From a virus (lineage: Duplodnaviria > Caudoviricetes), in the IMG/VR virus record IMGVR_UViG_3300030397_000563, positions 1-38,417 of that record: a stretch of 38,417 bases of DNA. One strand, 5' to 3'. The translations under genes were made by a program, and so were the position numbers. Shown here piece after piece: positions 2,504-34,027 of the stretch. Positions within the stretch are counted from its first letter, which is position 1. Each line of letters starts with the position of its first letter. The notes beneath the pieces were generated by a model. It was not told where the DNA came from and ran no database searches. It saw nothing but the letters and a program-made list of their open reading frames with translations.

Positions 2504-2824
2504 ATGGCAACAGATACGAACTTTCAAAAAATACTGGACGAGCTCAAGCTCATACACAGAGACTATCCAGATCTGCGTTTCGGTGAGATCTTACAAATAA
2601 GCTTGGATCGAATGATGCTTAAGGTGAACAGTGATCTTTCAGACATTTCAAGCAAGAAGATCTTGAACGCGCTTAAAACTTTTAATGCTAAGACGAATGA
2701 GGACAGGACTTCTAGGATTAAGAAGAACAGAGATCTTGTGAAGAGAGAGAAAGAAGTCAGAATAAGGATCGAAGAGAAAAAGAAGGAGTTAGAGAAGGCA
2801 AATGCGAATAAAGTTCAGCGATAA
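2504..2824 (+). CDS. Hypothetical protein (YPDLRFGEI motif, basic coiled-coil C-terminus)
   Basis: 106-aa ORF tightly packed between neighbours. Confidence 0.6.
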   Translation: MATDTNFQKILDELKLIHRDYPDLRFGEILQISLDRMMLKVNSDLSDISSKKILNALKTFNAKTNEDRTSRIKKNRDLVKREKEVRIRIEEKKKELEKANANKVQR

Positions 2825-3401
2825 GCTTAAAGCAAAGATGGCCAGAGAAGGACTCCTATTCTTACTTATAGATGCATTCCACAAGATGAACTGGAAGATC
2901 AGCAAGAAACGAAGTGTGAAGGAATGGCTGCAGGAACAAATCAGACTTATCGAACACATGGAAACACCTACTTTCGAAGGGCATCCTGACCAGAAGATCA
3001 TCAACATTCAGAAGTGGATCATAAAAAACATACGATACATTCCAGACCAGAAGCGATGGAAGACCATAGAGTACTGGCAGAACGTCCAAGAAACCATGAC
3101 ACTAAAGACTGGAGATTGTGAAGACGGTGCAGGACTCATGTACGCCTTAGCTGTGAAGAATAAAGTACCTCCTTACCTTCTTAGTTTTTGGTGCGGTCAT
3201 GCAAGAAATCCAAGAACCAAACAAATGGACGGACACGCTTGCATGAAGTACAAAGAAGACAGTATTTACTTAAGTAGCCTTAAGTATTATGTGGACTGGT
3301 GTTATGCGCCCGTGACAGTTCCCTTCAAGAACAGAGTGGACGAAACACAAGATCCTATTTATGCGAGTAAGTGGTTCGAAATTAACCACCTGGAGATATA
3401 G
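2802..3401 (+). CDS. Transglutaminase-like (Cys-His-Asp) cysteine peptidase, candidate lysis/envelope-degrading enzyme
   Basis: WIIKNIRY, EYWQ...ET...TGDCED (catalytic Cys), GHA (His), YVDW (Asp); located at the end of the late region. Confidence 0.75.
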   Translation: MRIKFSDKLKAKMAREGLLFLLIDAFHKMNWKISKKRSVKEWLQEQIRLIEHMETPTFEGHPDQKIINIQKWIIKNIRYIPDQKRWKTIEYWQNVQETMTLKTGDCEDGAGLMYALAVKNKVPPYLLSFWCGHARNPRTKQMDGHACMKYKEDSIYLSSLKYYVDWCYAPVTVPFKNRVDETQDPIYASKWFEINHLEI

Positions 3402-3404
3402 ACA

Positions 3405-3854
3405 ATGGATGGAATAGAAACGGTACTGGAGATAGGGAAGAATCTTGGGAGTTACGGAACAGTTGCAGCTGCAAGTCTTTACGGACTTTACAAGATAGGT
3501 GAGAAATTACTGACAAAGTATGATAATATGGTTTCTCGACATACTGACCTGCTTAAGCAGAGTTATGAAGAAAGGGCTAAAAGCTTGGAAGGAACTATTG
3601 TAAGTTATAGAGAAGAACTGCATGAAGAAAGACAACTTCTTAGAGAAAACACTAGAGTTCTTAATGGTATTGTAGAAAAGATTGGGGGCGTGACTACAGC
3701 CATAAATGATCTAAGAGTAGAAGTGAAAGATGGAAGACATGATCTTAAAGAAGTAGAAGAAGGGATTGAAGGGGAGATAGGAAAAGCTTGCGATGAGATT
3801 AAACAAGATACTCGTGTTATAAGAACTTATGTGGACCGCATGGGAGGAAGTTAA
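3405..3854 (+). CDS. Membrane-anchored coiled-coil protein, holin-like
   Basis: N-terminal hydrophobic segment (YGTVAAASLYGLY) followed by long heptad-like region; follows the peptidase. Confidence 0.5.
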   Translation: MDGIETVLEIGKNLGSYGTVAAASLYGLYKIGEKLLTKYDNMVSRHTDLLKQSYEERAKSLEGTIVSYREELHEERQLLRENTRVLNGIVEKIGGVTTAINDLRVEVKDGRHDLKEVEEGIEGEIGKACDEIKQDTRVIRTYVDRMGGS

Positions 3855-4222
3855 TGCTTATTGCTTATTTAGATGACACTGTGGAAGACTTGGAATATTG
3901 CAAAACTATGTTAGGTGATATGAAGGGTTGGATTGTTGATACTTACATGGATCACACAGTTTTCAGGAGAGCTGTTAAACTAATTGATTACGATATTATC
4001 TTGATGGATATAAACATGCCTGGGGTGAACGGTTTCGTTTTTGGAAAAAGACTGAACCATCCTAATATTATTTTTTATACTGGTCAAGAGTTGGATTTTT
4101 CTAGAGAGTTAATGCCTGATCTTGAGCATTACCCTATGCGTTCTAAGAATGATTCTATAGATGGTTTGATTAAGCTTATAGAAGATGTTAAAAGAGGAAC
4201 GTGTATCTATGAAAAACACTGA
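3854..4222 (+). CDS. Stand-alone CheY-like response-regulator receiver domain
   Basis: YLDD (D7/D8), ILMDINMPGVNG (phosphoacceptor D52), FYTG (T76), K98; 122 aa with no output domain; TAATG overlap with upstream gene. Confidence 0.85.
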   Translation: MLIAYLDDTVEDLEYCKTMLGDMKGWIVDTYMDHTVFRRAVKLIDYDIILMDINMPGVNGFVFGKRLNHPNIIFYTGQELDFSRELMPDLEHYPMRSKNDSIDGLIKLIEDVKRGTCIYEKH

Positions 4223-7564: not shown

Positions 7565-7731
7565 TCATGCGTAGTTTTGAAGACATTACTGAACGTCTTA
7601 AGACTTGTGTGTTTTATGAAGAGAATAAGCCAACGTATTTGGTGGTGGAGGACTTGCTTAATTTTTTAGATTTTGTACAAAAAGATCGAGGACATAAGAA
7701 GTTAGTTGAAGAATTTAAAGATTTTTCATAA
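7531..7731 (+). CDS. Small putative DNA-binding (ribbon-helix-helix-like) protein
   Basis: GGAGG RBS; MPRPRR basic N-terminus, beta-strand then two helices. Confidence 0.45.
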   Translation: MPRPRREGKPVIMRSFEDITERLKTCVFYEENKPTYLVVEDLLNFLDFVQKDRGHKKLVEEFKDFS

Positions 7732-7891
7732 TTCCAAAAAAAAACGAAAAGGCACTGAGGTAGTGAGTGTAGGACACAGAAAGGAAGCCACATCCAGTAA
7801 AGCGAGTGAAATATCTATGACCTTAAACAAAACGTGGGGAGACTGCTCACAGTCACCAATGAAGGTAAGTCCAGTATTTTTAATTAAAAAA

Positions 7892-8851
7892 ATGAAATTA
7901 GGAAGCTTATTTAGTGGAATTGGAGGTATAGAAATTGGTTTTAAAAAACAAGGATACAACACAGAATGGTTCGTCGAAAACGATTTATACGCACAAGCAA
8001 TCCTCAAAAAACGTTTTCCCAGCGCCAAAATATATGAAGATATTACGCAAACTGATTTTAGAACAGTACCAAAAGTTGACATCCTTACAGGAGGATTCCC
8101 CTGCCAAGACATTAGCAACGCTGGAAAAAGAGCTGGCATACAAGGGAGTCGTAGTTCACTCTGGAAACATTACCTCCGAGCCATTAACACAATACGACCC
8201 AAAATCGCATTCATTGAAAACGTTTCAGCACTCCTTAACAGGGGACTTGACGTCGTTCTCTGCGACCTTGCCAAGATCGGGTATGATGCAGAATGGCATT
8301 GTGTACCAGCTTCCGCCGTTGGTGCGTTGCACAAGAGGGATCGTATCTTCATCATATGCCACCCCCACGACAATGGATCACTTGCCCCCGAAAAGCGAAA
8401 AAGCATTACTCAAGGAAGCGAGGGTGACAAGAAAGGGAAGAAGCAAGCCGGCAAACCTGAGAGATCAAATCATGAACAGGGACAAGTGGCCTACCCCTCT
8501 TGCTTCGGAAGCAGCAAAGAAACCAACAGGGGGACTCACGAGGGCGGTATGGAAGAAATTTCCAACTCCACGTGCTTCGGACAGCACGGGGGGATATGTT
8601 CAAACAGAAAAGAACAAGACTGGGTACTCAAGTGTGAACAAGAGTGGAGTAAAGAAAGGGGCAAAATTACAGGACGCAATACGCTTCGAGGAGAAAAAAC
8701 CACGTGGGCAGTTGAACCCCCAGTGGGTAGAATGGCTGATGGGATTCCCAATAGGGTGGACAGAATTAAGTGTATTGGAAACGCAGTCGTTCCGCAACTT
8801 GCGGAAGTCTTTGCGAAAGCAATCAAAAAAGAAGGTTTAGAAAAACGATGA
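7892..8851 (+). CDS. DNA (cytosine-5) methyltransferase, alpha polypeptide (EcoHK31I-like)
   Basis: Motif I LFSGIGG, IV GGFPCQD, VI ENV, VIII HKRDRIF, X GNAVVPQ; motif IX not evident in this frame; ATG 7892 precedes motif I. Confidence 0.9.
   Translation: MKLGSLFSGIGGIEIGFKKQGYNTEWFVENDLYAQAILKKRFPSAKIYEDITQTDFRTVPKVDILTGGFPCQDISNAGKRAGIQGSRSSLWKHYLRAINTIRPKIAFIENVSALLNRGLDVVLCDLAKIGYDAEWHCVPASAVGALHKRDRIFIICHPHDNGSLAPEKRKSITQGSEGDKKGKKQAGKPERSNHEQGQVAYPSCFGSSKETNRGTHEGGMEEISNSTCFGQHGGICSNRKEQDWVLKCEQEWSKERGKITGRNTLRGEKTTWAVEPPVGRMADGIPNRVDRIKCIGNAVVPQLAEVFAKAIKKEGLEKR
8034..8840 (+). CDS. Overlapping-frame beta polypeptide of the C5-methyltransferase (motif IX-bearing)
   Basis: +1 frame open 7935-8840 inside the MTase; SATLPRSGMMQNG, repeated (Y/W/F)xTP motifs, GQLNPQWVEWLMGFPIGWT; start codon uncertain (first ATG 8034). 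Confidence 0.75.
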   Translation: MKILRKLILEQYQKLTSLQEDSPAKTLATLEKELAYKGVVVHSGNITSEPLTQYDPKSHSLKTFQHSLTGDLTSFSATLPRSGMMQNGIVYQLPPLVRCTRGIVSSSYATPTTMDHLPPKSEKALLKEARVTRKGRSKPANLRDQIMNRDKWPTPLASEAAKKPTGGLTRAVWKKFPTPRASDSTGGYVQTEKNKTGYSSVNKSGVKKGAKLQDAIRFEEKKPRGQLNPQWVEWLMGFPIGWTELSVLETQSFRNLRKSLRKQSKKKV

Positions 8852-11672: not shown

Positions 11673-11951
11673 ATGAACATATCTTTAAAGAACAAGAAGA
11701 AAGAAATCAAAGTCAGCATGGGACGTTTTACAAAACTCCTCATCTTCATATTATTATTGACTTTTATGGGGATGGTTTTCACACTTATAATTTTATCAAT
11801 GGACAAACCTGCAGAACCAACTTATATAGAATTTAATGAAAACCTTACTCAAGTTATCAAACCAACGTTTAATGTGACTACAACTCCTGGAAAAGGTGTG
11901 TGTATTACTCAAGAAAATGTTACGAGGTGTTATGATGGAAAAAAAGAGTGA
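11673..11951 (+). CDS. Small single-pass membrane protein with N-glycosylation sequons
   Basis: AGGAGG RBS; LLIFILLLTFMGMVFTLIILSM helix; NLT, NVT, NVT and a Cys pair in the C-terminal part. Confidence 0.7.
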   Translation: MNISLKNKKKEIKVSMGRFTKLLIFILLLTFMGMVFTLIILSMDKPAEPTYIEFNENLTQVIKPTFNVTTTPGKGVCITQENVTRCYDGKKE

Positions 11952-22720: not shown

Positions 22721-24003
22721 AAGAAGAAATACTATTTATAAAAAAACAGTTAGAGAACGATTTGAAACCTTTATCTACTGATGAAGTTCTTTTAATCTTT
22801 GAAACAACAGACGATCTGAGCATTATTAAGAACGCTGTAGAAATGGCTGAAGAAAGACTTTATGTGAGTTGGGGAAGTGTTGAAACCAAAGATAAAGCAG
22901 GGGAACTTATTCCTATTGATTCTTTAGTGCAACAACAAGAAACGTTGCTTAAACGAGGCGGAAGCATAACAGACCAACACAGCAACAGAGTGGTTGGGAA
23001 AACGTGTGCGTACAAAGTTTTAGAACACCCGAAAAGCGGAACGCTGGGAGTTCTTAATTTGAATAAGATTTATGACGATAACAGCTTAGACACTAAAGTG
23101 TGGGGTGAGATTGTTAGTGGTGAAAGAAAAGGCAGTAGTGTGGGAGGAATCAATGAAGGACTTCCAACTATTGGACGGGATGAAGCAGGAAACCCTGTGA
23201 AAGTGCTTGGATCTTTTCAACAAATGGAAACCGCAACAGTTTTTGACCCTTGCAACCCACTTGCTCTTAATGAAGCATTTAGCGTAGTAGCTAAAAGTAA
23301 TGTAGTAAAAGGAAAAGACAAGCTTGTACAAGCAGTTCTTAATAAACTTCCAAGCGTTATTGAGGAAGCATACGAGGAAGCATACCCTGAAGGAAAAGAT
23401 GAAAAAGCAAGTGAAAAGAGCAAAAGTCATATAAATAAGGACGGGGAAAATAATGTTATTAAAACCCAACAAGAAAAAAGGGGGATACCTATGGAAACAA
23501 AAACAGAAGAAAATTTTGATGTAAAAAAAGAACTTTCTGATATTGCTGAAACGATCAAAGGATTTAAAGAAGAAATGGGCAAAATCTCAGAAAAGATAAG
23601 CGTTCTCGAAAAGCAAGATGCTGAAGAGGATGAAAAAGAACCTGAAGTTGAAGAAAAGAAAAAAGTTGCTAAGCAAGAAGCTTCATCCGATATTGAAGGA
23701 GAATCAGATGGTGAACAACCTGAAGAACCTGTCGGAGAGGACAGCAACGATAAAGATGTCTACAAAAAAGTAGAAGAAAGAATGAAAGCTATGGAAGAAA
23801 ACATTACTAAAATGGTTAGTTCCAAGTTAGAAATGGTAAATAAAGCTTCCACACCTAAAATTGGTGGATTTAAAGATGTTAAGAAAGCTGAAGAGTTTTC
23901 ACAAACACCTTTGGAAATCGCTACTGGTCAAAAGAAGCTTTCTATGATTGAAGTGCATAAAGCATTTAATGCACATGAAAAAAATAAGGAAGGTGTGTAC
24001 TAA
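22717..24003 (+). CDS. Prohead protease with C-terminal scaffold region
   Basis: SVETKDKAGE, QHSNRVVG (His), GSSVGG (Ser), PCNP; acidic coiled-coil C-terminus; directly before MCP. Confidence 0.85.
   Translation: MKEEILFIKKQLENDLKPLSTDEVLLIFETTDDLSIIKNAVEMAEERLYVSWGSVETKDKAGELIPIDSLVQQQETLLKRGGSITDQHSNRVVGKTCAYKVLEHPKSGTLGVLNLNKIYDDNSLDTKVWGEIVSGERKGSSVGGINEGLPTIGRDEAGNPVKVLGSFQQMETATVFDPCNPLALNEAFSVVAKSNVVKGKDKLVQAVLNKLPSVIEEAYEEAYPEGKDEKASEKSKSHINKDGENNVIKTQQEKRGIPMETKTEENFDVKKELSDIAETIKGFKEEMGKISEKISVLEKQDAEEDEKEPEVEEKKKVAKQEASSDIEGESDGEQPEEPVGEDSNDKDVYKKVEERMKAMEENITKMVSSKLEMVNKASTPKIGGFKDVKKAEEFSQTPLEIATGQKKLSMIEVHKAFNAHEKNKEGVY
23423..23438 (+). promoter_or_regulatory. Late promoter motif internal to the protease gene
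   Basis: Perfect AAAGTCATATAAATAA inside coding sequence. Confidence 0.75.
23491..24003 (+). CDS. Nested in-frame scaffolding protein (170 aa)
   Basis: AGGGGG RBS and ATG 23491 in frame with the protease, downstream of the internal promoter motif. Confidence 0.65.
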   Translation: METKTEENFDVKKELSDIAETIKGFKEEMGKISEKISVLEKQDAEEDEKEPEVEEKKKVAKQEASSDIEGESDGEQPEEPVGEDSNDKDVYKKVEERMKAMEENITKMVSSKLEMVNKASTPKIGGFKDVKKAEEFSQTPLEIATGQKKLSMIEVHKAFNAHEKNKEGVY

Positions 24004-25127
24004 TGGAATTCACAACTGTAAACCAACTTCTTGAACACTTTTATGGACCTCAACAGGTTATGAAAGCGGATGCTCCAGTAATAAGTACTACTACGGGAGT
24101 TTACAACGCTATTTATGGTGCTCAAGCTTTTAGTCAATTAAACAATGAAGCAAACGCTTTTGCTCTTTTACCTAAACGTCCTTGGACGAAAAGTGGTTGG
24201 AGAGTAATTACTGCTGATGCAGGTTCAAGTGCTGATGGTGGTCTTGCTGAAAACGCAACTTTACCTGACACTACAAAACCTACCTTTGCAGAAATTAGTA
24301 CGAAAGCTAAGCAAGTAGGACACACGTTTGATGTGAGTTTCTTACAAGAAGGATATGTGAACAAAGGCGACGATGCTATTGGTGACATGGAATTCTTAAG
24401 AGGATACTTTGCAACCAAACACGCTAAAGCGATTAACCAACAATTATTAGTAGATGCTGACACCCTTGCAGGTAACAGTTTCGAAAGTATTGATAGGGTT
24501 GCTTTTAGTGCAGCTGCTAACACTGCTTTATCTTACACTTCTGGAGATGAAGACATCTACGGAATTGATAGAAGTGCGAACAGTTGGGCTGATGCTGTAG
24601 TAGACCACAATAGTGGAACTGACAGAAACCTTACTGCTGATTTGATCAGAGACACCCTTGCAACTTTGGAAACTAACGGTGCAAGAACAAACGTTATCCT
24701 TACGGGTAATGATACAAAGTATAAAATCTTTGGATTGTTCGAAAACCAAGTACGTTATCCTGGAGTTTTACAACAGGGACAAGTGGCTCAGATTGGTATT
24801 AATGGTGTGCAGACTGACGCAGGAATTACTGCAGGTGCAAGAGTTGCAACCTTGTGGGGAATCCCAATTTTTACGAGTCAAGCTGTAGCTCAAGACACTA
24901 TTAGTAGAATCTACTTGTTAGACACTACTGAGAACGAAGAAACAGGTGTGCCAAGACTTTTCATTGCCTTGTTATACCCTACAATGTACTTTGAGAGTGG
25001 TATGAGTGCTGCGAACCCAGATCCTTTCGCTGTTGATAGAACAGGAACTGAAGGTATGTACTACACTGCAGGAGAACTTATCTGTACGTTCTTCAAAGCT
25101 CAAGGAAGCATTCGTGACCTCCAATAA
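24003..25127 (+). CDS. Major capsid protein (HK97 fold), archaeal tailed-virus type
   Basis: KADAPVISTTTGVYNAIYG...SQLNNEANAFALLPKRPWTKSGWRVIT, FESIDRV, GELIC..F..QGSIRDL; follows protease. Confidence 0.92.
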   Translation: MEFTTVNQLLEHFYGPQQVMKADAPVISTTTGVYNAIYGAQAFSQLNNEANAFALLPKRPWTKSGWRVITADAGSSADGGLAENATLPDTTKPTFAEISTKAKQVGHTFDVSFLQEGYVNKGDDAIGDMEFLRGYFATKHAKAINQQLLVDADTLAGNSFESIDRVAFSAAANTALSYTSGDEDIYGIDRSANSWADAVVDHNSGTDRNLTADLIRDTLATLETNGARTNVILTGNDTKYKIFGLFENQVRYPGVLQQGQVAQIGINGVQTDAGITAGARVATLWGIPIFTSQAVAQDTISRIYLLDTTENEETGVPRLFIALLYPTMYFESGMSAANPDPFAVDRTGTEGMYYTAGELICTFFKAQGSIRDLQ

Positions 25128-25687: not shown

Positions 25688-26154
25688 TGGGAAACGGATT
25701 AACAGGCGACAACCCTGCTGCGCCACCATACAGTAATGGACCTTATACGTGGGATCAAAAAGTTACTTTTAACAATGGATTGGTAGCAGGTGCTGAATCA
25801 GTAACGCCAAACAATGATGCTGGAACTGCTTCAACAATTACTGCAGGAAGAACTGCGGTGGACGTTCAAGCAGTAACAAACGACGCAAACGATTTTATCG
25901 TATTACCTGCTCTTGCAGATGTACCTGTGGGACACACAATTACGATTGGGTGTAATGCAGGAACGAACTTCGAGCTGAGAACTCCAGCCTCAAGTGGTGA
26001 GAAAATCAACAACGTTGATGCAGACGGAACTCAGGAATACTTGTGTACTGACACCGATGTCGTTGTTTGTCGTAAGATAAGCAACACTGATGGATGGACT
26101 GCACAATCTTTCCAGATTTCAGGAGCAGTCAGAACCGCTGTAACTCCAGACTAG
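25687..26154 (+). CDS. Putative capsid decoration/head-associated protein
   Basis: GAGGTGA RBS; Gly/Thr/Ala-rich beta protein near MCP. Confidence 0.5.
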   Translation: MGNGLTGDNPAAPPYSNGPYTWDQKVTFNNGLVAGAESVTPNNDAGTASTITAGRTAVDVQAVTNDANDFIVLPALADVPVGHTITIGCNAGTNFELRTPASSGEKINNVDADGTQEYLCTDTDVVVCRKISNTDGWTAQSFQISGAVRTAVTPD

Positions 26155-26167
26155 ACACTCTCTAGTC

Positions 26168-26188
26168 TTCTTTTTTTTCTTTTTTTTT
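26168..26188 (+). terminator. Oligo-T terminator
   Basis: Long T tract after the 26154 stop. Confidence 0.55.
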
Positions 26189-26230
26189 GAAGGTTCGAAC
26201 AATCAAAAACCTAAGGAAGGTGAAATAATC

Positions 26231-26404: not shown

Positions 26405-26755
26405 ATGGTAAACCTCGTAAATATGGATATCCAAAGGGGGGACGATTACAGCGTAGCTATTGCTGTAAAGGATGAGAACGCAGCTGCGATTGACATCACA
26501 GGCTGGAAATTCTGGATAACTATAAAGTCGAACGAGTCAGATGCTGATGGTTCAGCGGTGGTGCAAAAAGCAGTGACAAGCCATGATGATCCGACAAACG
26601 GGCTGACAACGGTAAGCCTTTCTAATTCTGATACGGATTCCCTTCTGGGGAAATATTTTTATGACATCCAATTTAAGAAAGCGGATGGTAAAGTGAAAAC
26701 CTTAATGTATGGGGTTATCGATTTCAAGTATGATTATACGAGGACGACATCATGA
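26405..26755 (+). CDS. BppU-N-like Ig-fold adaptor protein
   Basis: IQRGDD...IDITGW...GKYFYDIQ pattern. Confidence 0.65.
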   Translation: MVNLVNMDIQRGDDYSVAIAVKDENAAAIDITGWKFWITIKSNESDADGSAVVQKAVTSHDDPTNGLTTVSLSNSDTDSLLGKYFYDIQFKKADGKVKTLMYGVIDFKYDYTRTTS

Positions 26756-26958
26756 CGGAAGACAATATTACTCTAAGCGTGGAAGATGGGCTGCAGGTAA
26801 CGGTTACGCTGAACGCTATACGAACGGTTAATTACGTGGATGAGGATGAAAAGTTTTATCTGGATGGTGCGAGTGGAACAACATATTTTATATTCAACAG
26901 TACTACACAGAAGGTGGAGATCTTTGTGAAAGGTACGAAAAAGGGGGCATGGGGATGA
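26752..26958 (+). CDS. Small beta-rich virion-module protein
   Basis: ATGA coupling; FYLDG...TYFIFNS...VEIFVKG. Confidence 0.6.
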   Translation: MTEDNITLSVEDGLQVTVTLNAIRTVNYVDEDEKFYLDGASGTTYFIFNSTTQKVEIFVKGTKKGAWG

Positions 26959-28046
26959 AATCTATCTATAAACTATTTCCGCTTCTGCTTATACTTGCAC
27001 TTCTTTCTATAAGTGTGAGTGCGGATAACGAACAATTTGATGATGTGAACTATAACAATTACACTCTTTACAATGTGAGCAACATTACTGCTATAAGGTT
27101 CATTGGTGATGGAAGCCAACTCACAGGCATAACAGGTGCGAACGGAAGTAATATTTTACAGGATAATGCATACAATCATACACAGTTTCATGAGAACGAT
27201 AACCAGCTGAACGTGAATCTTTCATGGTTTCAGACGGCAGTAAACGCCTTAGTAGATTTGAGTAATTACGTAACTCTTTCACTCTTATCGACGAACAACG
27301 CTTCTTTAATCACTTACATTGATGCACAAGATGTGACATTCAATAATTCTGCTATTGCAGACGTGGATGCTAAACTAGGCTCTTACGTAAACGATAGCCA
27401 ATTTGTGGATAACAATGAGACGCTTAAGAATTATACTGATGGGTTGAATGGCACGTGGGAAGACAAGATCTACACTGGCCAAAGTGGAATTATAGCAAAC
27501 ACAGATGGGAACTTTACCATAAACACTTCTTATGTGAATGATTCTGTAGGAACGAACGCAAGCATAGATGCCAGAGTAACACAGAGCTTTCTTCAAGCAA
27601 TTCTGGATGCTGTTTACGTAACTATATCCGTTTTTGAAACGAACAATGCAAGTGTTAAAGATTACGTTGATGGCCTCAATGGAACTTGGGAAGATAAAGT
27701 TTATACAGGACATAGTGGGATAATAGCAAATGCGGATGGAAATTTTAGTGTGAACACGACCTATATCAACGACAGCATAGGGACTAATGCAACAATCGAT
27801 GCACGTGTCACTCAGAGTTTTCTGCAGAACTTACTGGACACTGTTTATGTCAGTCTTTCAAACATTTACATAAGTGAAGTGCAAAACGATACCACTCCTC
27901 AACTGGGTGGAAATCTTGATACGAATGAGTTTAACCTGACAGGAAATCATAGTTTAATATTTGATACGGGCGGTCAGAGAACTAGCAATGGTTCGTGCGA
28001 AGTATTATGGATATTGAACAGTGGAAACACGGTGTGTTTTAACTAG
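26955..28046 (+). CDS. Signal-peptide-bearing, sequon-rich fibre-like protein with a 77-aa internal repeat
   Basis: MKSIYKLFPLLLILALLSISVSA signal peptide; ~26 N-x-S/T sequons; fibre motifs FIGDGSQLTGI and DTTPQLGGNLD. Confidence 0.75.
   Translation: MKSIYKLFPLLLILALLSISVSADNEQFDDVNYNNYTLYNVSNITAIRFIGDGSQLTGITGANGSNILQDNAYNHTQFHENDNQLNVNLSWFQTAVNALVDLSNYVTLSLLSTNNASLITYIDAQDVTFNNSAIADVDAKLGSYVNDSQFVDNNETLKNYTDGLNGTWEDKIYTGQSGIIANTDGNFTINTSYVNDSVGTNASIDARVTQSFLQAILDAVYVTISVFETNNASVKDYVDGLNGTWEDKVYTGHSGIIANADGNFSVNTTYINDSIGTNATIDARVTQSFLQNLLDTVYVSLSNIYISEVQNDTTPQLGGNLDTNEFNLTGNHSLIFDTGGQRTSNGSCEVLWILNSGNTVCFN
27411..27851 (+). repeat. Intragenic tandem duplication, 231-nt (77-aa) period
   Basis: NNETLKNYTDGLNGTWEDKIYTG... 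at 27411 vs NNASVKDYVDGLNGTWEDKVYTG... at 27642. Confidence 0.85.
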
Positions 28047-28054
28047 GAGAAAAG

Positions 28055-28510
28055 ATGGCAGCTGTACCTGATAAATCGAGCGGAGACAACCTTGCACCTA
28101 GTGAATTGTTTAAACTATTTGGTGTGGACACTACAGGTGGTTCAACCACTTCAACGTCTTATGTAAAGATAGGCGAGGTTGCAGTTCCTGCAGGTAAAGT
28201 CGGAACTTATGTGGAAGTTACTGCCATGGTAACGGGTGCAAGTGTGGATGCTGGATCTGCAACGGAAGCAGGAACTTGGGATGTCAGAATAGGAGAAACA
28301 GGATCTGAAGTTAGCAAAGACACCTTTACAGCAGGTGGTTTTGGAGCAGATGGAGGAGGGAGTTTCACCATAAACTATACTATAACTTATTATTACACAC
28401 CAACCAGTGATGAAAAGACCAACGGATTTAACGTTCAAATATATGCCAAGACAGCTGACGCAGGAAGCCCAGCAATGGTAGTTCATCAATTATTAGTTAA
28501 AGGTGTGTGA
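28055..28510 (+). CDS. Putative fibre/spike head protein
   Basis: AGGAG RBS; Gly/Thr-rich beta-sandwich-like sequence (STTSTSYVKI). Confidence 0.5.
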   Translation: MAAVPDKSSGDNLAPSELFKLFGVDTTGGSTTSTSYVKIGEVAVPAGKVGTYVEVTAMVTGASVDAGSATEAGTWDVRIGETGSEVSKDTFTAGGFGADGGGSFTINYTITYYYTPTSDEKTNGFNVQIYAKTADAGSPAMVVHQLLVKGV

Positions 28511-28513
28511 GCA

Positions 28514-31500
28514 ATGCCAAAGAAAGGAAGCAAAAGGATAACAGCAAAAAGAGTTAAGAAATGGGCTAGTCAGAGCTCAGGACCTCTTGGAGTGCTTCTT
28601 ATAGGATTAATCATATTCTTAGGTGCAGGTTACATAGAAGGAGAAATAGATTATAGCCCTTCATGTGCTGGTGATAACTTTTCTGGAGATCCTTGCTGGA
28701 TGGAATTAAGACTATGTATGGAAAAGGACGTTTTCATATATCCAGATCAAGGATACTCGGAGTTGATGAACACGAACGGCTCGCTTGAGGACATACGTCT
28801 TTTAAGAAAGTGGGGTACGGGTTATAGAGAATATGATCTTACTGATACGTGCAAAGGCACATGGTGTGGAGCTCCTCGAGGAGTAAAAGAAGCAGCTTAT
28901 AGTGTAGCCTTAAGAGAAGGCAAATGCTATGATTTACGTGTGGAGGCTTTGAAAGAAGATCCTGAAGAAAATATTTTATGGAGTATTAACCCAGAAGGAA
29001 TATGGGAAGGAAAGAAAGTTTCTGCTGTTTCAACAGGACAAAAGAAAGAGCGAGCAGTCACTTATCCTTCTGAAGCAAGGAAATCTGGACATAAAACCGT
29101 TTCGCTTGCAAGTCCTTCTTATAAAGTAAAGAATCAACCCTTAGGAACGTATAAGGTAACAAGGAAAACAGGCAACGAAAGCTTTTACGATGTTAGAATG
29201 ACAAGCAAGACCATACAAGAGATAGAAAACTATACTTCTTTCAACGGTTCTTTTGAGCAAAGAATAGTGAACGTATCTATACAGACAGTTTGTTTTGTAG
29301 CTGATTTTCAAAGAAAGTCTTATAATGAGACGCTTCCAGACGGTTCTAAGATAAAAAGAACGTATCATGTACCTTCCAATTTTACAGCTTACAAGAATGG
29401 TGAAGAACAAACAGGTCATGAGCTGAGAAGGAGTTTCAAGAAGAAAATTGCTGATGAAGTTAAAGAAGGAGTTTTCAGAAGAGACAGGTTTCAAAGAGGG
29501 GATACTTATGAATTCTGTACGGATTTAGATCCTAGAACGGACTTTCACTTTAAGTTTGGTGAAGCGACCATAGAGTTAGAACAAGAAACCTCACTCACAG
29601 CAAACGTACACTTAGTAAATGTTACGGCAGAACCACAATACACCCATCTGAACATAAGCGATCCCAGTGTTGTTTTTTACACCACATTTGACAAAGAAAA
29701 CAACACACACGTACACGACTATTCTAAAAATAACAATGATGGAACGGTCAACGGAGTAAGCATTGCTTACAACGAAACAGGATATATAGGCCGTAGTGCT
29801 TACATGGACGGAACAACAGACAACGTTATAGAAATAAGCGACTTTGACGAGTTAGGAGATGACGGAAGCTTAAGTGCTTTTATTTGGGTGAATGGTGCTT
29901 CTCAAACTACTAAGGGTGTTCTTGCTCATTATGACAGTAGCGGAAACCAGAGATCATGGCAGTTAAGAAGTGGAAGAAGTGGAAGTGAAGATGAAATAGC
30001 CATTGTTATTAGTGACAATGGAGGGAGTAGCGATCTTAAAGAGTACGAATCAAGCATTACTGCTTTCGATAGCACATGGAACAGTGTTGCTTTTGCTTGG
30101 AACGGTACAAGCCAACAGCTTAATCTTTTTGTTAATGGGGTGAATGATACTAGCGTTCATAAAAGATCAGATAATGATATTACTGACATTCACGACAGTA
30201 CGGGAGTTTACGATATTGGAAGTACCACAAGTGGTGGGACACCTGCTTCTATATTTACGGGAAGTCTTGATATGGCTATGATTTTTAACAGGACTTTAGG
30301 TGTTGATGAAATAGCAAACTTACACAATCAAACACTTCCTTTATTCATTCAAAGCGGAACACAAACATTTGCAAGCTTCCCTCTTAACCTTACTGATGAG
30401 AACGTGTTGAACGTGAGCGTGGAAGGTTATCAAAGGTTTAATGGTACTGATATTTTTTTAGAAGTAGGAGACTGGAACTACACTGAAAGTTATACTTGTT
30501 CTAGCGATCCTGATCTTATATTGTGTCTTCCTATGGATAACAGAACAGAAAATGGGGAGAATGAAACGTTTACTATTGGGCTTTCTCAAAATAATAATGC
30601 AACTGTGCAAAGAGGGACTCCTGATACTGCGGATGGTCGTTTTCATACGGGTTTTAAGTTTGAAGAAACAGATCAAGACGCTTTCTTGGCTGATGTTTCA
30701 CAAATGGATGGACTTGATAGAGGGACTATTAGTGCGTGGGTGAATTACGAAAGTTTTTATGGTGGTAATGAGAACATGCCTATTTCTTCCAGAACTGCGG
30801 GAGGGAATAGAGTTTACTTGAGTTATCCTTCAGGAAGCAACATTCTCATAGGACTTGGAAGTAGCGGAGCTATAGATACAGGTGTGGATACGACAGAAGT
30901 TCCTGTTGGTACTTGGCACATGCAAACTCTAACATGGGATAGTGGAAGTTATGCTTGGTATTTGGATGGTGTTCAAAGAGATACTGGAAGTTATGGAAGC
31001 ACAGTAGACATGGATAACAAAATTGCCATTGGAGGTTTTGACAGCGGGGACACTCTTGGAAGTGGTTTCGAGTTTGACGGTAGTTTAGATCATGTGCTTA
31101 TTTGGAATAGGAGTTTGAGTTCTGATGAAGTAAAGGACGTCTATGTGAATGGGTTTCTTAATTTCACGTATAATAATTATACTCGTTTAACTGCTATAGA
31201 TGGAAATGATAATTCTAGTTTTGATGAGTTTACCGTGCGTAACAGTAGCACTGAATTCGAATTAAAGTTTAATCTTACAAGCAATGATAATAACAGTTAT
31301 AGTCCTAGCTTAGGAGATGCTAACATCACTCTTGGATTCGAGTTCGTGCCACCACCACCTTTAGAAGCAGGAGCAGGAAAGAACATTACAAGCGAACCCT
31401 TATACCATCACTTAAACATTACAAACGAGAATATTTTGTTTTACATGCCTTTTGATGGAGACAACAACACAGACGCTTATGACTATACTTCCTATAATGA

Positions 31501-33346
31501 AGACGGAACAGTAGTCAGTGCTAACACATCTTCATCTGGAATTATTAGCAACAGTCTCGGACTTGATGGTTCTTCAGGTTATGTAGACATCCTTGATAGT
31601 GCAACAGGAGGTCATACTTTCACAGATTTAGGACAGAACATTACAGTTAGTGCTTGGATTAATCCCGTAGACACTTCGGCAACAGGAAGTTTTTGGTTTG
31701 GAGGAGAAACCATTATAGAATTAAGAGATGAGGGGAGTTCTTCTGATGTTCCTTTTTCTATGGGAACTCATGATAATAAGCTAAGTCTTGGTGTAGCTAC
31801 TGCAGGGGTTTCAAACTTTCATAGAGTTACGAGCACAAACAATCTTACAGAGAATGAATGGCAACAAGTAGGTTTTACGATTTCAGGAAATAATTATAAG
31901 CTTTTCATTAACGGTGTGTTGAACGGTTCGGGTACTCTTACTCCTACGGGTGACCGTGCAGTTAATGACACAGCTGCAAATTTCCAAATAGGGGTGAGAA
32001 GCAGGAATAGTGGACAGAAAGATTCTAACTTTTTCGGTGGCCTTATTGATGAAGTGATTATTTTCAACAGTAGCTTAACTGAAAGTGATATGGGAAACAT
32101 ATACGATTTTTCTTTGCCTAAATTCTCAAAAAGCGGAGAATTAAGTTATAAGAGCAGTCCTATTAATGTTACAACAGAAGATAGAATCAATTACACCTTT
32201 GAAGCCTATAACAGGTTTAACGGTACAGAACTTAAAATAACCCATATGTGGTGGAATTATACAAAAGGATACAATGAAACACCTGATGAACTTCTTGCAT
32301 ACTACCACTTTGACAATAGAACCGATCTTGGAGAAAACAACACGTACTTTATAGATTCATCAATATATGGAAATAATCTCACGGCAAGTGGAGAAGCAAG
32401 TTTTAATGCAACAGGAAGATACCATACAGGATTAGGTGTCGATGGAGTAAATGATTACGCATCTCTTTCTGATGGGGGAGATATTAGCCTTGATCTTTCA
32501 GATAACTTTACCATATCATGGTGGTATAAGCACGGAAAACACAACGGTTTGTATGAAACTATGATTTCTAAAAGGGTTGCCAACACAGACACTTCTAATT
32601 ATCAATTTTACAAACACGTAACCACCAACCAGCTCAGGTACTATAATGGTATTGCCGAGTACGAGTTCGACCACGTAATAGGACAAGATACTGATTGGAC
32701 ACACTTATTATTAAGCATGGACACTGAAGGCACAGATACGTTAAGCCTTTACGTAAACGGAGTGTTTGATAGTAGTGTGAGTGCTAGTCCTGGAAGCGTT
32801 AATAACGGTGATTTCTGGGTGGGCTATTTCGACCATGCAAGCCAAGACGAGTTCTTTAATGGAAGTATTGATGATATAAGGATACTGAATAGGAGTTCAA
32901 CTGCTGAAGAAGCAGAAGAACAATACCTTATTGGAAACTTATTATACTTACGTAACGAGACACAGTCTTTTAATGCTTCTGATGCGAATGATAATTTTAG
33001 TGTGAATAGTTTTCCTCTTGATCCTAGTACGCAAGAACACCACGCACTCATAACTTTTGAATCTAATAATGAACAATCATATTCTCCACTAACCACTATA
33101 GCACAGCCCGTGTTCACTCCTTTTCAGGGAGGAGGTGCTCCCCCTGCAGACTCTTGCACGTACACTTCAGGAGCTCACACTTACTTATGCGAAGATAACT
33201 GTAACATTGCAGTGACGACAGATTTTAATCAGAACAGTGTTCTCGTGCAAGGAAACGGGACTTTTACAGGATTTAAGAACTTGTTTAATTATTCGTCTTT
33301 CGAGCTCGTAAGCCTTCCTCAGACACAATGTCACATGCATTCGTAG
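28514..33346 (+). CDS. Giant membrane-anchored/secreted protein with four LamG domains (two duplicated modules), sequon-rich
   Basis: Basic N-terminus then GVLLIGLIIFLGAGYI; four LamG repeats ending GSLDMAMIFNRTL, GSLDHVLIWNRSL, GLIDEVIIFNSSL, GSIDDIRILNRSS; Cys-rich N- and C-terminal domains. Confidence 0.85.
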   Translation: MPKKGSKRITAKRVKKWASQSSGPLGVLLIGLIIFLGAGYIEGEIDYSPSCAGDNFSGDPCWMELRLCMEKDVFIYPDQGYSELMNTNGSLEDIRLLRKWGTGYREYDLTDTCKGTWCGAPRGVKEAAYSVALREGKCYDLRVEALKEDPEENILWSINPEGIWEGKKVSAVSTGQKKERAVTYPSEARKSGHKTVSLASPSYKVKNQPLGTYKVTRKTGNESFYDVRMTSKTIQEIENYTSFNGSFEQRIVNVSIQTVCFVADFQRKSYNETLPDGSKIKRTYHVPSNFTAYKNGEEQTGHELRRSFKKKIADEVKEGVFRRDRFQRGDTYEFCTDLDPRTDFHFKFGEATIELEQETSLTANVHLVNVTAEPQYTHLNISDPSVVFYTTFDKENNTHVHDYSKNNNDGTVNGVSIAYNETGYIGRSAYMDGTTDNVIEISDFDELGDDGSLSAFIWVNGASQTTKGVLAHYDSSGNQRSWQLRSGRSGSEDEIAIVISDNGGSSDLKEYESSITAFDSTWNSVAFAWNGTSQQLNLFVNGVNDTSVHKRSDNDITDIHDSTGVYDIGSTTSGGTPASIFTGSLDMAMIFNRTLGVDEIANLHNQTLPLFIQSGTQTFASFPLNLTDENVLNVSVEGYQRFNGTDIFLEVGDWNYTESYTCSSDPDLILCLPMDNRTENGENETFTIGLSQNNNATVQRGTPDTADGRFHTGFKFEETDQDAFLADVSQMDGLDRGTISAWVNYESFYGGNENMPISSRTAGGNRVYLSYPSGSNILIGLGSSGAIDTGVDTTEVPVGTWHMQTLTWDSGSYAWYLDGVQRDTGSYGSTVDMDNKIAIGGFDSGDTLGSGFEFDGSLDHVLIWNRSLSSDEVKDVYVNGFLNFTYNNYTRLTAIDGNDNSSFDEFTVRNSSTEFELKFNLTSNDNNSYSPSLGDANITLGFEFVPPPPLEAGAGKNITSEPLYHHLNITNENILFYMPFDGDNNTDAYDYTSYNEDGTVVSANTSSSGIISNSLGLDGSSGYVDILDSATGGHTFTDLGQNITVSAWINPVDTSATGSFWFGGETIIELRDEGSSSDVPFSMGTHDNKLSLGVATAGVSNFHRVTSTNNLTENEWQQVGFTISGNNYKLFINGVLNGSGTLTPTGDRAVNDTAANFQIGVRSRNSGQKDSNFFGGLIDEVIIFNSSLTESDMGNIYDFSLPKFSKSGELSYKSSPINVTTEDRINYTFEAYNRFNGTELKITHMWWNYTKGYNETPDELLAYYHFDNRTDLGENNTYFIDSSIYGNNLTASGEASFNATGRYHTGLGVDGVNDYASLSDGGDISLDLSDNFTISWWYKHGKHNGLYETMISKRVANTDTSNYQFYKHVTTNQLRYYNGIAEYEFDHVIGQDTDWTHLLLSMDTEGTDTLSLYVNGVFDSSVSASPGSVNNGDFWVGYFDHASQDEFFNGSIDDIRILNRSSTAEEAEEQYLIGNLLYLRNETQSFNASDANDNFSVNSFPLDPSTQEHHALITFESNNEQSYSPLTTIAQPVFTPFQGGGAPPADSCTYTSGAHTYLCEDNCNIAVTTDFNQNSVLVQGNGTFTGFKNLFNYSSFELVSLPQTQCHMHS

Positions 33347-33357
33347 ACGAGAGGTAG

Positions 33358-33373
33358 AAAGTCATATAAATAA
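33358..33373 (+). promoter_or_regulatory. Late promoter motif
   Basis: AAAGTCATATAAATAA; TATA begins 27 nt before ATG 33392. Confidence 0.8.
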
Positions 33374-33391: not shown

Positions 33392-34027
33392 ATGGCAACA
33401 TATTGTACAGCGGACGACGTGAGAAGAGTCTTACAAGTCGATTTCGATTTTAGCAGTCAAAAGCTTCCTACAGATACAGATGTGGAAGCAAGCATCGAAG
33501 AAGCTGAGGACGAGATAGATCAAGAAACCCAGCATGCATGGAGGGCTGTAACTGTAACTAATGAGTTTTATGACATTCCTATTCAAGCCTACAGAGAAGG
33601 TGTAGGAACACCCATTCACCTAAAGCATAGAAATGTTCGAACGTTAGCATCAGGAAGTGGGGATAAGTTAGAAGTGTGGGATGGGAGTAGTTATGAGGAC
33701 TGGCTCACGACAAAAACAGAAGGAAGAGCTAACGATTACTGGCTGGATGAAGAATTAGGCATATTATACATAAGACGTTATTGGAAATATTACTGGAAGA
33801 AGGCCATAAGAATGACTTACAGGTACGGAGAAAGCACAGTACCAAAGGACATAAGAAAGGCCACAGCTATGCTTGCAGCTATAGATTTTATCATGAGCGA
33901 TGATCTCAGTGCGTCTCTGAACGAAACAGGGGACAGTATGCGTGTGGGTCACGAGTCTAGAATTGAGATTATGCGTGAGAGAGTGGAGAAGATCATACGA
34001 AACAGGCGAGAAATACCTGTATTCTAA
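33392..34027 (+). CDS. Head-tail adaptor/connector protein
   Basis: YCTADDV...IEEAEDEID...TYRYG...VPKDIRKAT pattern. Confidence 0.8.
   Translation: MATYCTADDVRRVLQVDFDFSSQKLPTDTDVEASIEEAEDEIDQETQHAWRAVTVTNEFYDIPIQAYREGVGTPIHLKHRNVRTLASGSGDKLEVWDGSSYEDWLTTKTEGRANDYWLDEELGILYIRRYWKYYWKKAIRMTYRYGESTVPKDIRKATAMLAAIDFIMSDDLSASLNETGDSMRVGHESRIEIMRERVEKIIRNRREIPVF

Follow-up and report, generated by a model that had tools for sequence, protein, structure and literature searches.

The analysed stretch of DNA (hereafter the window) is 38,417 nucleotides long, and Pfam- and PHROG-type searches recovered in it the terminase, portal, capsid, adaptor, tail tube and tape measure genes of a siphovirus. The two ends of the window share a 123-base overlap containing a single mismatch, and the record is listed as linear and 45% complete. 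Family searches detected no integrase among the scanned ORFs. Inside the block of particle genes, between the capsid gene and the head-tail adaptor, lies an ORF encoding a fibre-like protein together with several neighbours (Table 1). Upstream of this module there is a terminator-like element but no clear promoter. A TATA-like element recognised by eye at 33366-33373 precedes the adaptor gene by about 25 bases, and the tail genes may therefore have their own promoter after the module. No RNA holder was listed among the sequencing runs. Elsewhere, a transglutaminase-like protein (2802-3401) and a lone response-regulator receiver (3854-4222) are encoded after the tail genes. Two long overlapping frames on one strand (7706-8851 and 7935-8840) both match DNA methyltransferase families and possibly represent a two-part or frameshifted methyltransferase.

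Table 1. Features of the slot between the capsid and adaptor genes, in window coordinates
Feature	Position	Strand	Basis or remark
Major capsid protein, left slot border, sequon control	24003..25127	+	PHROG, capsid matches
Hairpin with long T run, terminator-like, upstream of module	26148..26189	+	Sequence scan
phrog_1084 protein, BppU-like only through homologue, no signal peptide or sequon excess	26405..26755	+	PHROG
Mini-fibre candidate, 68 aa, non-exported	26752..26958	+	Weak tip-profile match (E 0.041)
Fibre-like protein, 363 aa, predicted exported, 26 sequons	26955..28046	+	Hydropathy, sequon counts
Predicted cleavable signal peptide, residues 1-23	26955..27023	+	Hydropathy 2.75; cleavage site by eye
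Fibre-shaft motif 1, residues 49-59	27099..27131	+	Common to non-exported phage-fibre-like proteins
77-aa repeat 1	27384..27614	+	Repeat alignment
77-aa repeat 2; its six sequons align with those of repeat 1	27615..27845	+	Repeat alignment
Fibre-shaft motif 2, residues 312-322	27888..27920	+	Common to phage-fibre-like proteins
C-terminal tip, one sequon and Cys pair	27972..28043	+	By eye, resembles the tips of P0005 and of two cell fibres
Beta-sandwich protein, 151 aa, no signal peptide	28055..28510	+	Homologue in tail-end region of L009
Partner (1610 aa) with four LamG domains, 57 sequons and a hydrophobic segment, either anchor or signal, at the N-terminus	28514..33346	+	Hydropathy, Pfam
Unnamed C-terminal Cys domain of partner	33116..33343	+	Common to related viruses and cell chromosomes
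Head-tail adaptor, right slot border	33392..34027	+	PHROG

The start of the fibre gene overlaps the stop of the mini-fibre gene, and an in-frame ATG at 26949 would add two residues. The fibre had no Pfam or NCBIfam match, and PHROG was matched only at E about 0.01. Its N-terminus consists of basic residues, a hydrophobic core (the hydropathy value in Table 1 being a 15-residue mean) and V-S-A/D at residues 21-24. Signal-peptide calls are heuristic and rest on hydropathy; in the fibre, the cleavage pattern fits as well. A hydropathy scan revealed no second hydrophobic segment (maximum 1.64), and no membrane anchor follows the signal. The protein contains just two cysteines, Cys348 and Cys361. 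The signal-like start, the Cys pair and the presence of both fibre motifs agree with the original prediction made from the bare sequence. The family tip profile did not match the tip. Monomer fold prediction reached a pLDDT of 30 and was unusable, and Atlas look-ups gave leads only (top scores 0.84 and 0.76).

The number of sequons, estimated at about 26 in the original prediction, was confirmed as exactly 26 among 49 asparagines, nearly threefold the chance number: shuffled sequences contained 9.1±2.6, and none of 2000 shuffles reached 26. Serine or threonine occurred 26 times at N+2 versus 4-12 times at the seven other offsets between -4 and +4, and only four of 29 aspartates carried one at +2. 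N/S/T composition alone as a cause of the sequon density was thus rejected, by both the shuffles and the specificity for N+2. No excess was found in the capsid protein (3 vs 3.0 expected) or the tube (2 vs 3.4), the comparison proposed originally, nor in the portal (4 vs 4.2) or the non-exported, LamG-bearing tail hub of the window (7 vs 7.0). Among 62 window ORFs, sequon excess with z>3 was observed in three: the fibre, the partner (57 vs 24.2 in shuffles) and a small ORF at 11673-11951. Exactly these three also exceeded an N-terminal hydropathy of 2. The hallmarks which the partner has in common with the fibre had been overlooked in the original prediction. The ORF at 11673-11951 lies in the early region and encodes a 92-aa protein with a membrane segment and four sequons (z 3.7); similar small genes are present in the related loci L002 and L078.

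The repeats, with a period of 77 residues, are identical at 58 of 83 positions, and 36 of these 58 positions differ by a synonymous codon change. Judged from their sequences, the repeats are old and conserved. That sequons are kept between them while their residues change was borne out for the most part: all six sequons of repeat 2 are also found in repeat 1, four of them with S/T swapped at +2, and a single S/T swap lies outside sequons. Two sequons of repeat 1, at residues 146 and 159, are absent from repeat 2.

As for the neighbouring genes, Pfam BppU_N was not matched by the window protein itself (26405) and was matched by its homologue in L016 (E 2.6e-4). An anchor-like N-terminus is located in the separate gene 26752, by its likeness (by eye) to the starts of the fibres of L016 and L001. 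A fold search with the 28055 product gave no match at E<=0.001, and a fold search with the Cys domain of the partner found no solved relative. Neither the fibre nor the Cys-domain partner belongs to a family in Pfam, PHROGs or NCBIfam, and the domain at the partner's N-terminus and the Cys domain of L015 had no match in 50,697 GenBank phage records. Among the loci searched, the partner N-terminal domain was restricted to viral ones.

We then asked in which homologues sequon excess and export signals occur. A search of 1.84 billion representatives returned 40 matches besides the fibre itself. Most of them had only the two short shaft motifs in common with it, without signal and without sequon excess. 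The body of the fibre was matched by P0005 and P0018, and these two, together with P0041, have both a signal and an excess; P0005 was not found in the viral contigs searched. All three database matches with strong sequon excess have a hydrophobic N-terminus, while none of the 36 matches lacking one shows an excess. The same coupling was observed in 61 related loci (430 non-redundant ORFs of >=150 aa, 21 ORFs cut at the 5' end being excluded), where z>3 was reached by 18 of 35 ORFs with a hydrophobic N-terminus versus 5 of 395 others, two of these five falling just under the hydropathy cut.

Aspartate or glutamate at -2 was not enriched, being present at 4 of 26 sequons of the fibre and 2 of 57 of the partner. 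The sequons are therefore not of the bacterial PglB type, and glycosylation by PglB was rejected as unlikely; the sequon types follow a table in PMC2952790. The accessible text of the same source places the action of AglB on the outer face of the membrane. Because sequon excess tracks export signals, acidic residues are not enriched at -2 and AglB acts outside the membrane, the fibre is likely to be exported and N-glycosylated by the AglB of an archaeal host, as predicted originally, a prediction that the present analysis supports as a strong inference.

The host of the window virus is likely a tiny symbiotic archaeon. The nearest annotated capsid proteins are those of the archaeal viruses HCTV-5 and HVTV-1 (38-40%), and the relative whose capsid is most similar (77%) is a contig assigned to a Ca. 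Pacearchaeota bin, the genome of which we take to belong to the class Nanoarchaeia. From this one binned contig we infer a symbiont of the Pace-/Woesearchaeota type. Binning alone is weak evidence of host, as a 48% capsid relative from the same scan is filed in a Bacillota bin. Only a quick tree of capsids was built. The capsid profile matched two of 401 genomes; one match was the binned contig, the other a distant copy, so that no provirus backs the host assignment. AglB was detected in four of five candidate host-type genomes.

Next, the slot between capsid and adaptor genes was compared across the 21 loci that span it (L079 and L080 representing one virus). An exported sequon-rich gene was present there in seven loci and none in 14. 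Absence from the slot does not equal absence from the genome, since in L079, a locus outside the profile training, the fibre and Cys-domain partner follow the portal gene, and in L081 and L090 hydrophobic-start genes follow the hub gene. The position of the pair thus varies between viruses, following either the capsid gene or the portal, and exported genes also occur near the tail tip (L081, L090 and L110). In every virus examined, they nevertheless lie inside the particle gene block, and they are variable between sister viruses. The order BppU-like gene, mini-fibre, exported fibre is common to the window and L078, where a mini-fibre-like gene likewise precedes the exported fibre. In L016, the corresponding place behind a BppU-like gene is taken by a non-exported fibre. 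Altogether, the BppU-like gene accompanies an exported fibre in the window and L078, and non-exported genes in L016 and L001.

Further genes of the slot and its surroundings were also recorded. A third hydrophobic-start slot gene encodes a zinc-peptidase-like domain (PF07737) in L009 (7188-7862) and a protein that is protease-like by eye in L014 (9003-9695). Very long sequon-rich ORFs (z 5-14) are present in the head gene region at L104:1-7059, L096:15158-19831 and L109:2-2779, the last being related to the partner of the window. The slot of more distant relatives holds a different exported set, which includes type I membrane proteins. Seven of these were found just after capsid genes (L085:5491-6327, L101:13507-14322, L105:11388-12272, L106:9101-9760, L107:7011-7670, L110:5884-6597 and L111:9436-10305). 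They consist of a signal, a Cys-rich linker, a C-terminal membrane segment and, in most, a conserved His-rich cytoplasmic tail, and each is preceded by an exported sequon-rich protein. Two of them had no informative Pfam match. Given its conserved inner tail, such a protein could link capsids to the membrane.

Gene pairs of the same kind were detected on cellular chromosomes. A profile of four viral Cys-domain rows matched 12 of 301 genomes, and a wider profile including ten cell rows matched 16 of 301. In the 13 genome regions examined around the Cys domain, a signal-bearing fibre-like gene was adjacent to the Cys-domain gene in nine and close to it in two; two regions (G097 and G189) are cut off, which leaves any such gene out of view. 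The tip profile matched 13 of 301 genomes, six of them outside its training set, and in these six the fibre lay directly before the Cys-domain gene in three and close to it in one. G154 was rejected as a false tip match, and the fibre of G293 has no sequon excess. The pairs are flanked by housekeeping genes (PolD, Cdc6, L11, Spt5, RFC and others), and no terminase was found by a search of five pair-bearing genomes. The chromosomes in question likely belong to Nanoarchaeia. Homology is clear between the partners of viruses and cells (E 4e-30 and 8e-24) and also holds for some of the fibres (E 1e-16 and 1e-10). The viral N-terminal profile matched one of 39 and one of five genomes, only at the generic shaft motif. 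On several chromosomes (L046, L049, L052, L072 and L073), an identical series of additional exported genes comes after the pair, which suggests a putative larger conserved surface apparatus.

In the window, the pair appears as a signal-bearing fibre near a signal-bearing Cys-domain gene, with one 151-aa gene in between. The window fibre used alone as a query matched none of 401 genomes, and BLASTP against 12 cell fibres gave no match. Links to the cell fibres were obtained only via P0018, L015 and motif profiles. When 1310 proteins were ranked with profiles built without the window fibre, it came directly behind the family members (E 3e-6 and 0.002), the underlying motifs having been drafted with the window fibre in view. 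Shuffle tests of the pairwise alignments with cell fibres gave modest scores (z 1.1-4.0), which carry no weight as proof. The window fibre's own tie to the cell fibres is at the level of motifs and through intermediates only. Considered as a set, the window genes are likely a viral copy of the gene pair residing on the probable Nanoarchaeia chromosomes.

From the related pairs on archaeal chromosomes, it follows that the protein is likely a cell-surface attachment fibre rather than an ordinary one mounted on particles within the cell. The explanation ranked first, for which we see an even chance, is that fibre and partner form a virus-borne surface adhesin displayed on the infected cell. It is preferred because the pair persists in cells that gave no terminase match, moves as a block and does not depend on a BppU-like gene. 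The type I membrane proteins in the slot of more distant relatives are also in its favour. The host would export the fibre through Sec, the signal would be cleaved and AglB would add glycans outside the membrane. The fibre would form a trimer and bind the partner, whose N-terminal segment would hold both in the membrane and whose LamG domains would bind glycans. Both proteins would be expressed together with the particle genes. The infected symbiont or its remains would then stick to cells where new symbionts sit, and the progeny would be released near its targets. Several observations count against such a display: the placing of exported genes within the particle block suits a part of the virion, the fibre at the corresponding place of L016 is non-exported, the window fibre by itself matched neither genomes nor cell fibres, many partners have a cleavable-looking signal and no anchor, and no integrase was found among the scanned ORFs that would indicate a long-lived carrier cell. 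Remodelling of the infected cell surface had been one of two fates proposed in the original prediction. It gained support from the chromosomal pairs and, like the other fate, stays a proposal.

The other fate, incorporation into the virion, is possible but less probable. Here, the fibre, once exported and glycosylated, would attach to the capsid, neck or tail while virions are being released or afterwards; the virion would then be completed outside the cytoplasm and bear an adhesin of the symbiont's type. We keep this alternative alive because of the constant placing of exported genes in the particle block, whether after the capsid gene, after the portal or near the tail tip, and because of the non-exported fibre which follows the BppU-like gene in L016. 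The gene order conserved between the window and L078 and the missing membrane anchor of the fibre are also in its favour, as is HFTV1, in which glycan-binding head decorations are described for an archaeal tailed virus (10.1101/2024.12.09.627619, in the parts available). Against it stand the presence of the pair in cells where no terminase was found, the anchor-like N-terminus of the partner, the 14 loci with no such gene in the slot, and the stretch following the signal, which by eye resembles a shaft repeat and not an anchor domain. The specific route suggested originally, docking via the BppU-like neighbour, found no support: within the locus stretches examined, the BppU-like profile gave no match near the fibre in L009, L014, L015 and L079, i.e. 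in four of six fibre-bearing viruses. If virions were loaded after release, one might tentatively picture a virus clade that took over the fibre with which its DPANN symbiont host attaches, lets the cell export and glycosylate it, and mounts it on released virions, which would thereby cling to the larger cells colonised by new symbionts. The fibre family would then shuttle between viruses and the chromosomes of symbionts, a scenario we hold with reserve.

It is unlikely that the exported glycoproteins merely shield the infected cell or serve as released decoys, masking receptors or capturing competing virions (superinfection exclusion), with no adhesive role. Export, heavy predicted glycosylation, variability between sister viruses and the terminator-like element upstream of the module would fit this; four LamG domains and the fibre motifs nevertheless point to binding, no integrase was found among the scanned ORFs, and the cell copies reside in clusters of other exported genes, as a structural appendage would. 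Least probable, and hardly to be expected, is a recently captured host gene that inherited its signal and sequons and is functionless for the virus: while the patchy distribution and the presence of host-type modules are compatible with it, pairs of this kind are retained in numerous divergent viruses, the repeats carry many synonymous and few non-synonymous changes, and the partner N-terminal domain occurs only in viral loci among those searched.

Returning to the display of the pair on infected cells as the preferred explanation, we compared the window genes with known systems. With its signal-like start and no family match, the fibre does not look like a cytoplasmic protein with an N-terminal virion anchor and was therefore not filed as a virion fibre; its predicted mode of action is that of a surface glycoprotein of archaea, assembled from parts of phage fibres. 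The turret head protein gp31 of HFTV1 is a trimeric, glycan-binding head decoration of a siphovirus with a proposed role in first attachment (10.1101/2024.12.09.627619). The window fibre resembles such head decorations and fibres of tailed viruses in its shaft motifs, common to phage-fibre-like proteins, but has a signal peptide in place of the anchor; the terms "signal peptide" and "sequon" were not found in the searchable text of that source. The HFPV-1 spike, SSV1 and SSV19 provide AglB-glycosylated proteins of enveloped archaeal viruses (PMC10384203, accessible portion). Host glycosylation at the membrane, here predicted, is the likeness, whereas those viruses bear membranes and the window virus has a siphovirus capsid, portal, terminase and tail tube.

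Among bacterial viruses, temperate phages such as lambda encode lysogenic-conversion proteins (Lom and Bor in lambda), exported proteins of the cell envelope, within the late gene block; these are not known to be N-glycosylated. The window genes are alike in encoding predicted exported proteins from a late gene block and differ in that no integrase was found among the scanned ORFs.

Auxiliary genes for surface attachment in CPR/DPANN viruses, as far as covered by the available part of PMC12647753, comprise glycosyltransferases, nucleotide-sugar genes and, in CPR phages only, lectins. The idea that viruses of symbionts supply functions of surface attachment is common to that work and ours, but the window carries a predicted exported fibre pair of a kind also found on chromosomes. 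TafC (NF052521; PMC11821415), a Tat-exported subunit of the haloarchaeal tafi fimbria, is a surface-filament protein; the partner matched it through LamG domains only (E 1e-25, far below the cut-off), and the fibre had no TafC match. Viral fibres about as large as those of the host are mentioned for a spindle-type virus in the available text of an Asgard preprint (10.64898/2026.08.12.739948). In the accessible parts of PMC10384203, 10.1101/2024.12.09.627619, PMC13437554, PMC11329633, PMC12647753, 10.64898/2026.08.12.739948 and PMC2952790, the pair is not described. The literature searched, with most subscription papers and supplements outside its scope, contained neither exported sequon-rich fibres in tailed archaeal viruses nor the pair.

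For the attachment of Pace- and Woesearchaeota to their hosts, the pair represents a concrete candidate apparatus, composed of a phage-fibre-like glycoprotein and a partner with a new Cys domain, common to the chromosomes of these archaea and to their likely viruses. Display of the pair on infected cells would mean that viruses are able to alter the adhesion partners of a symbiont. Its presence on virions would imply that part of tailed-virus assembly takes place outside the cell, contrary to textbook accounts.
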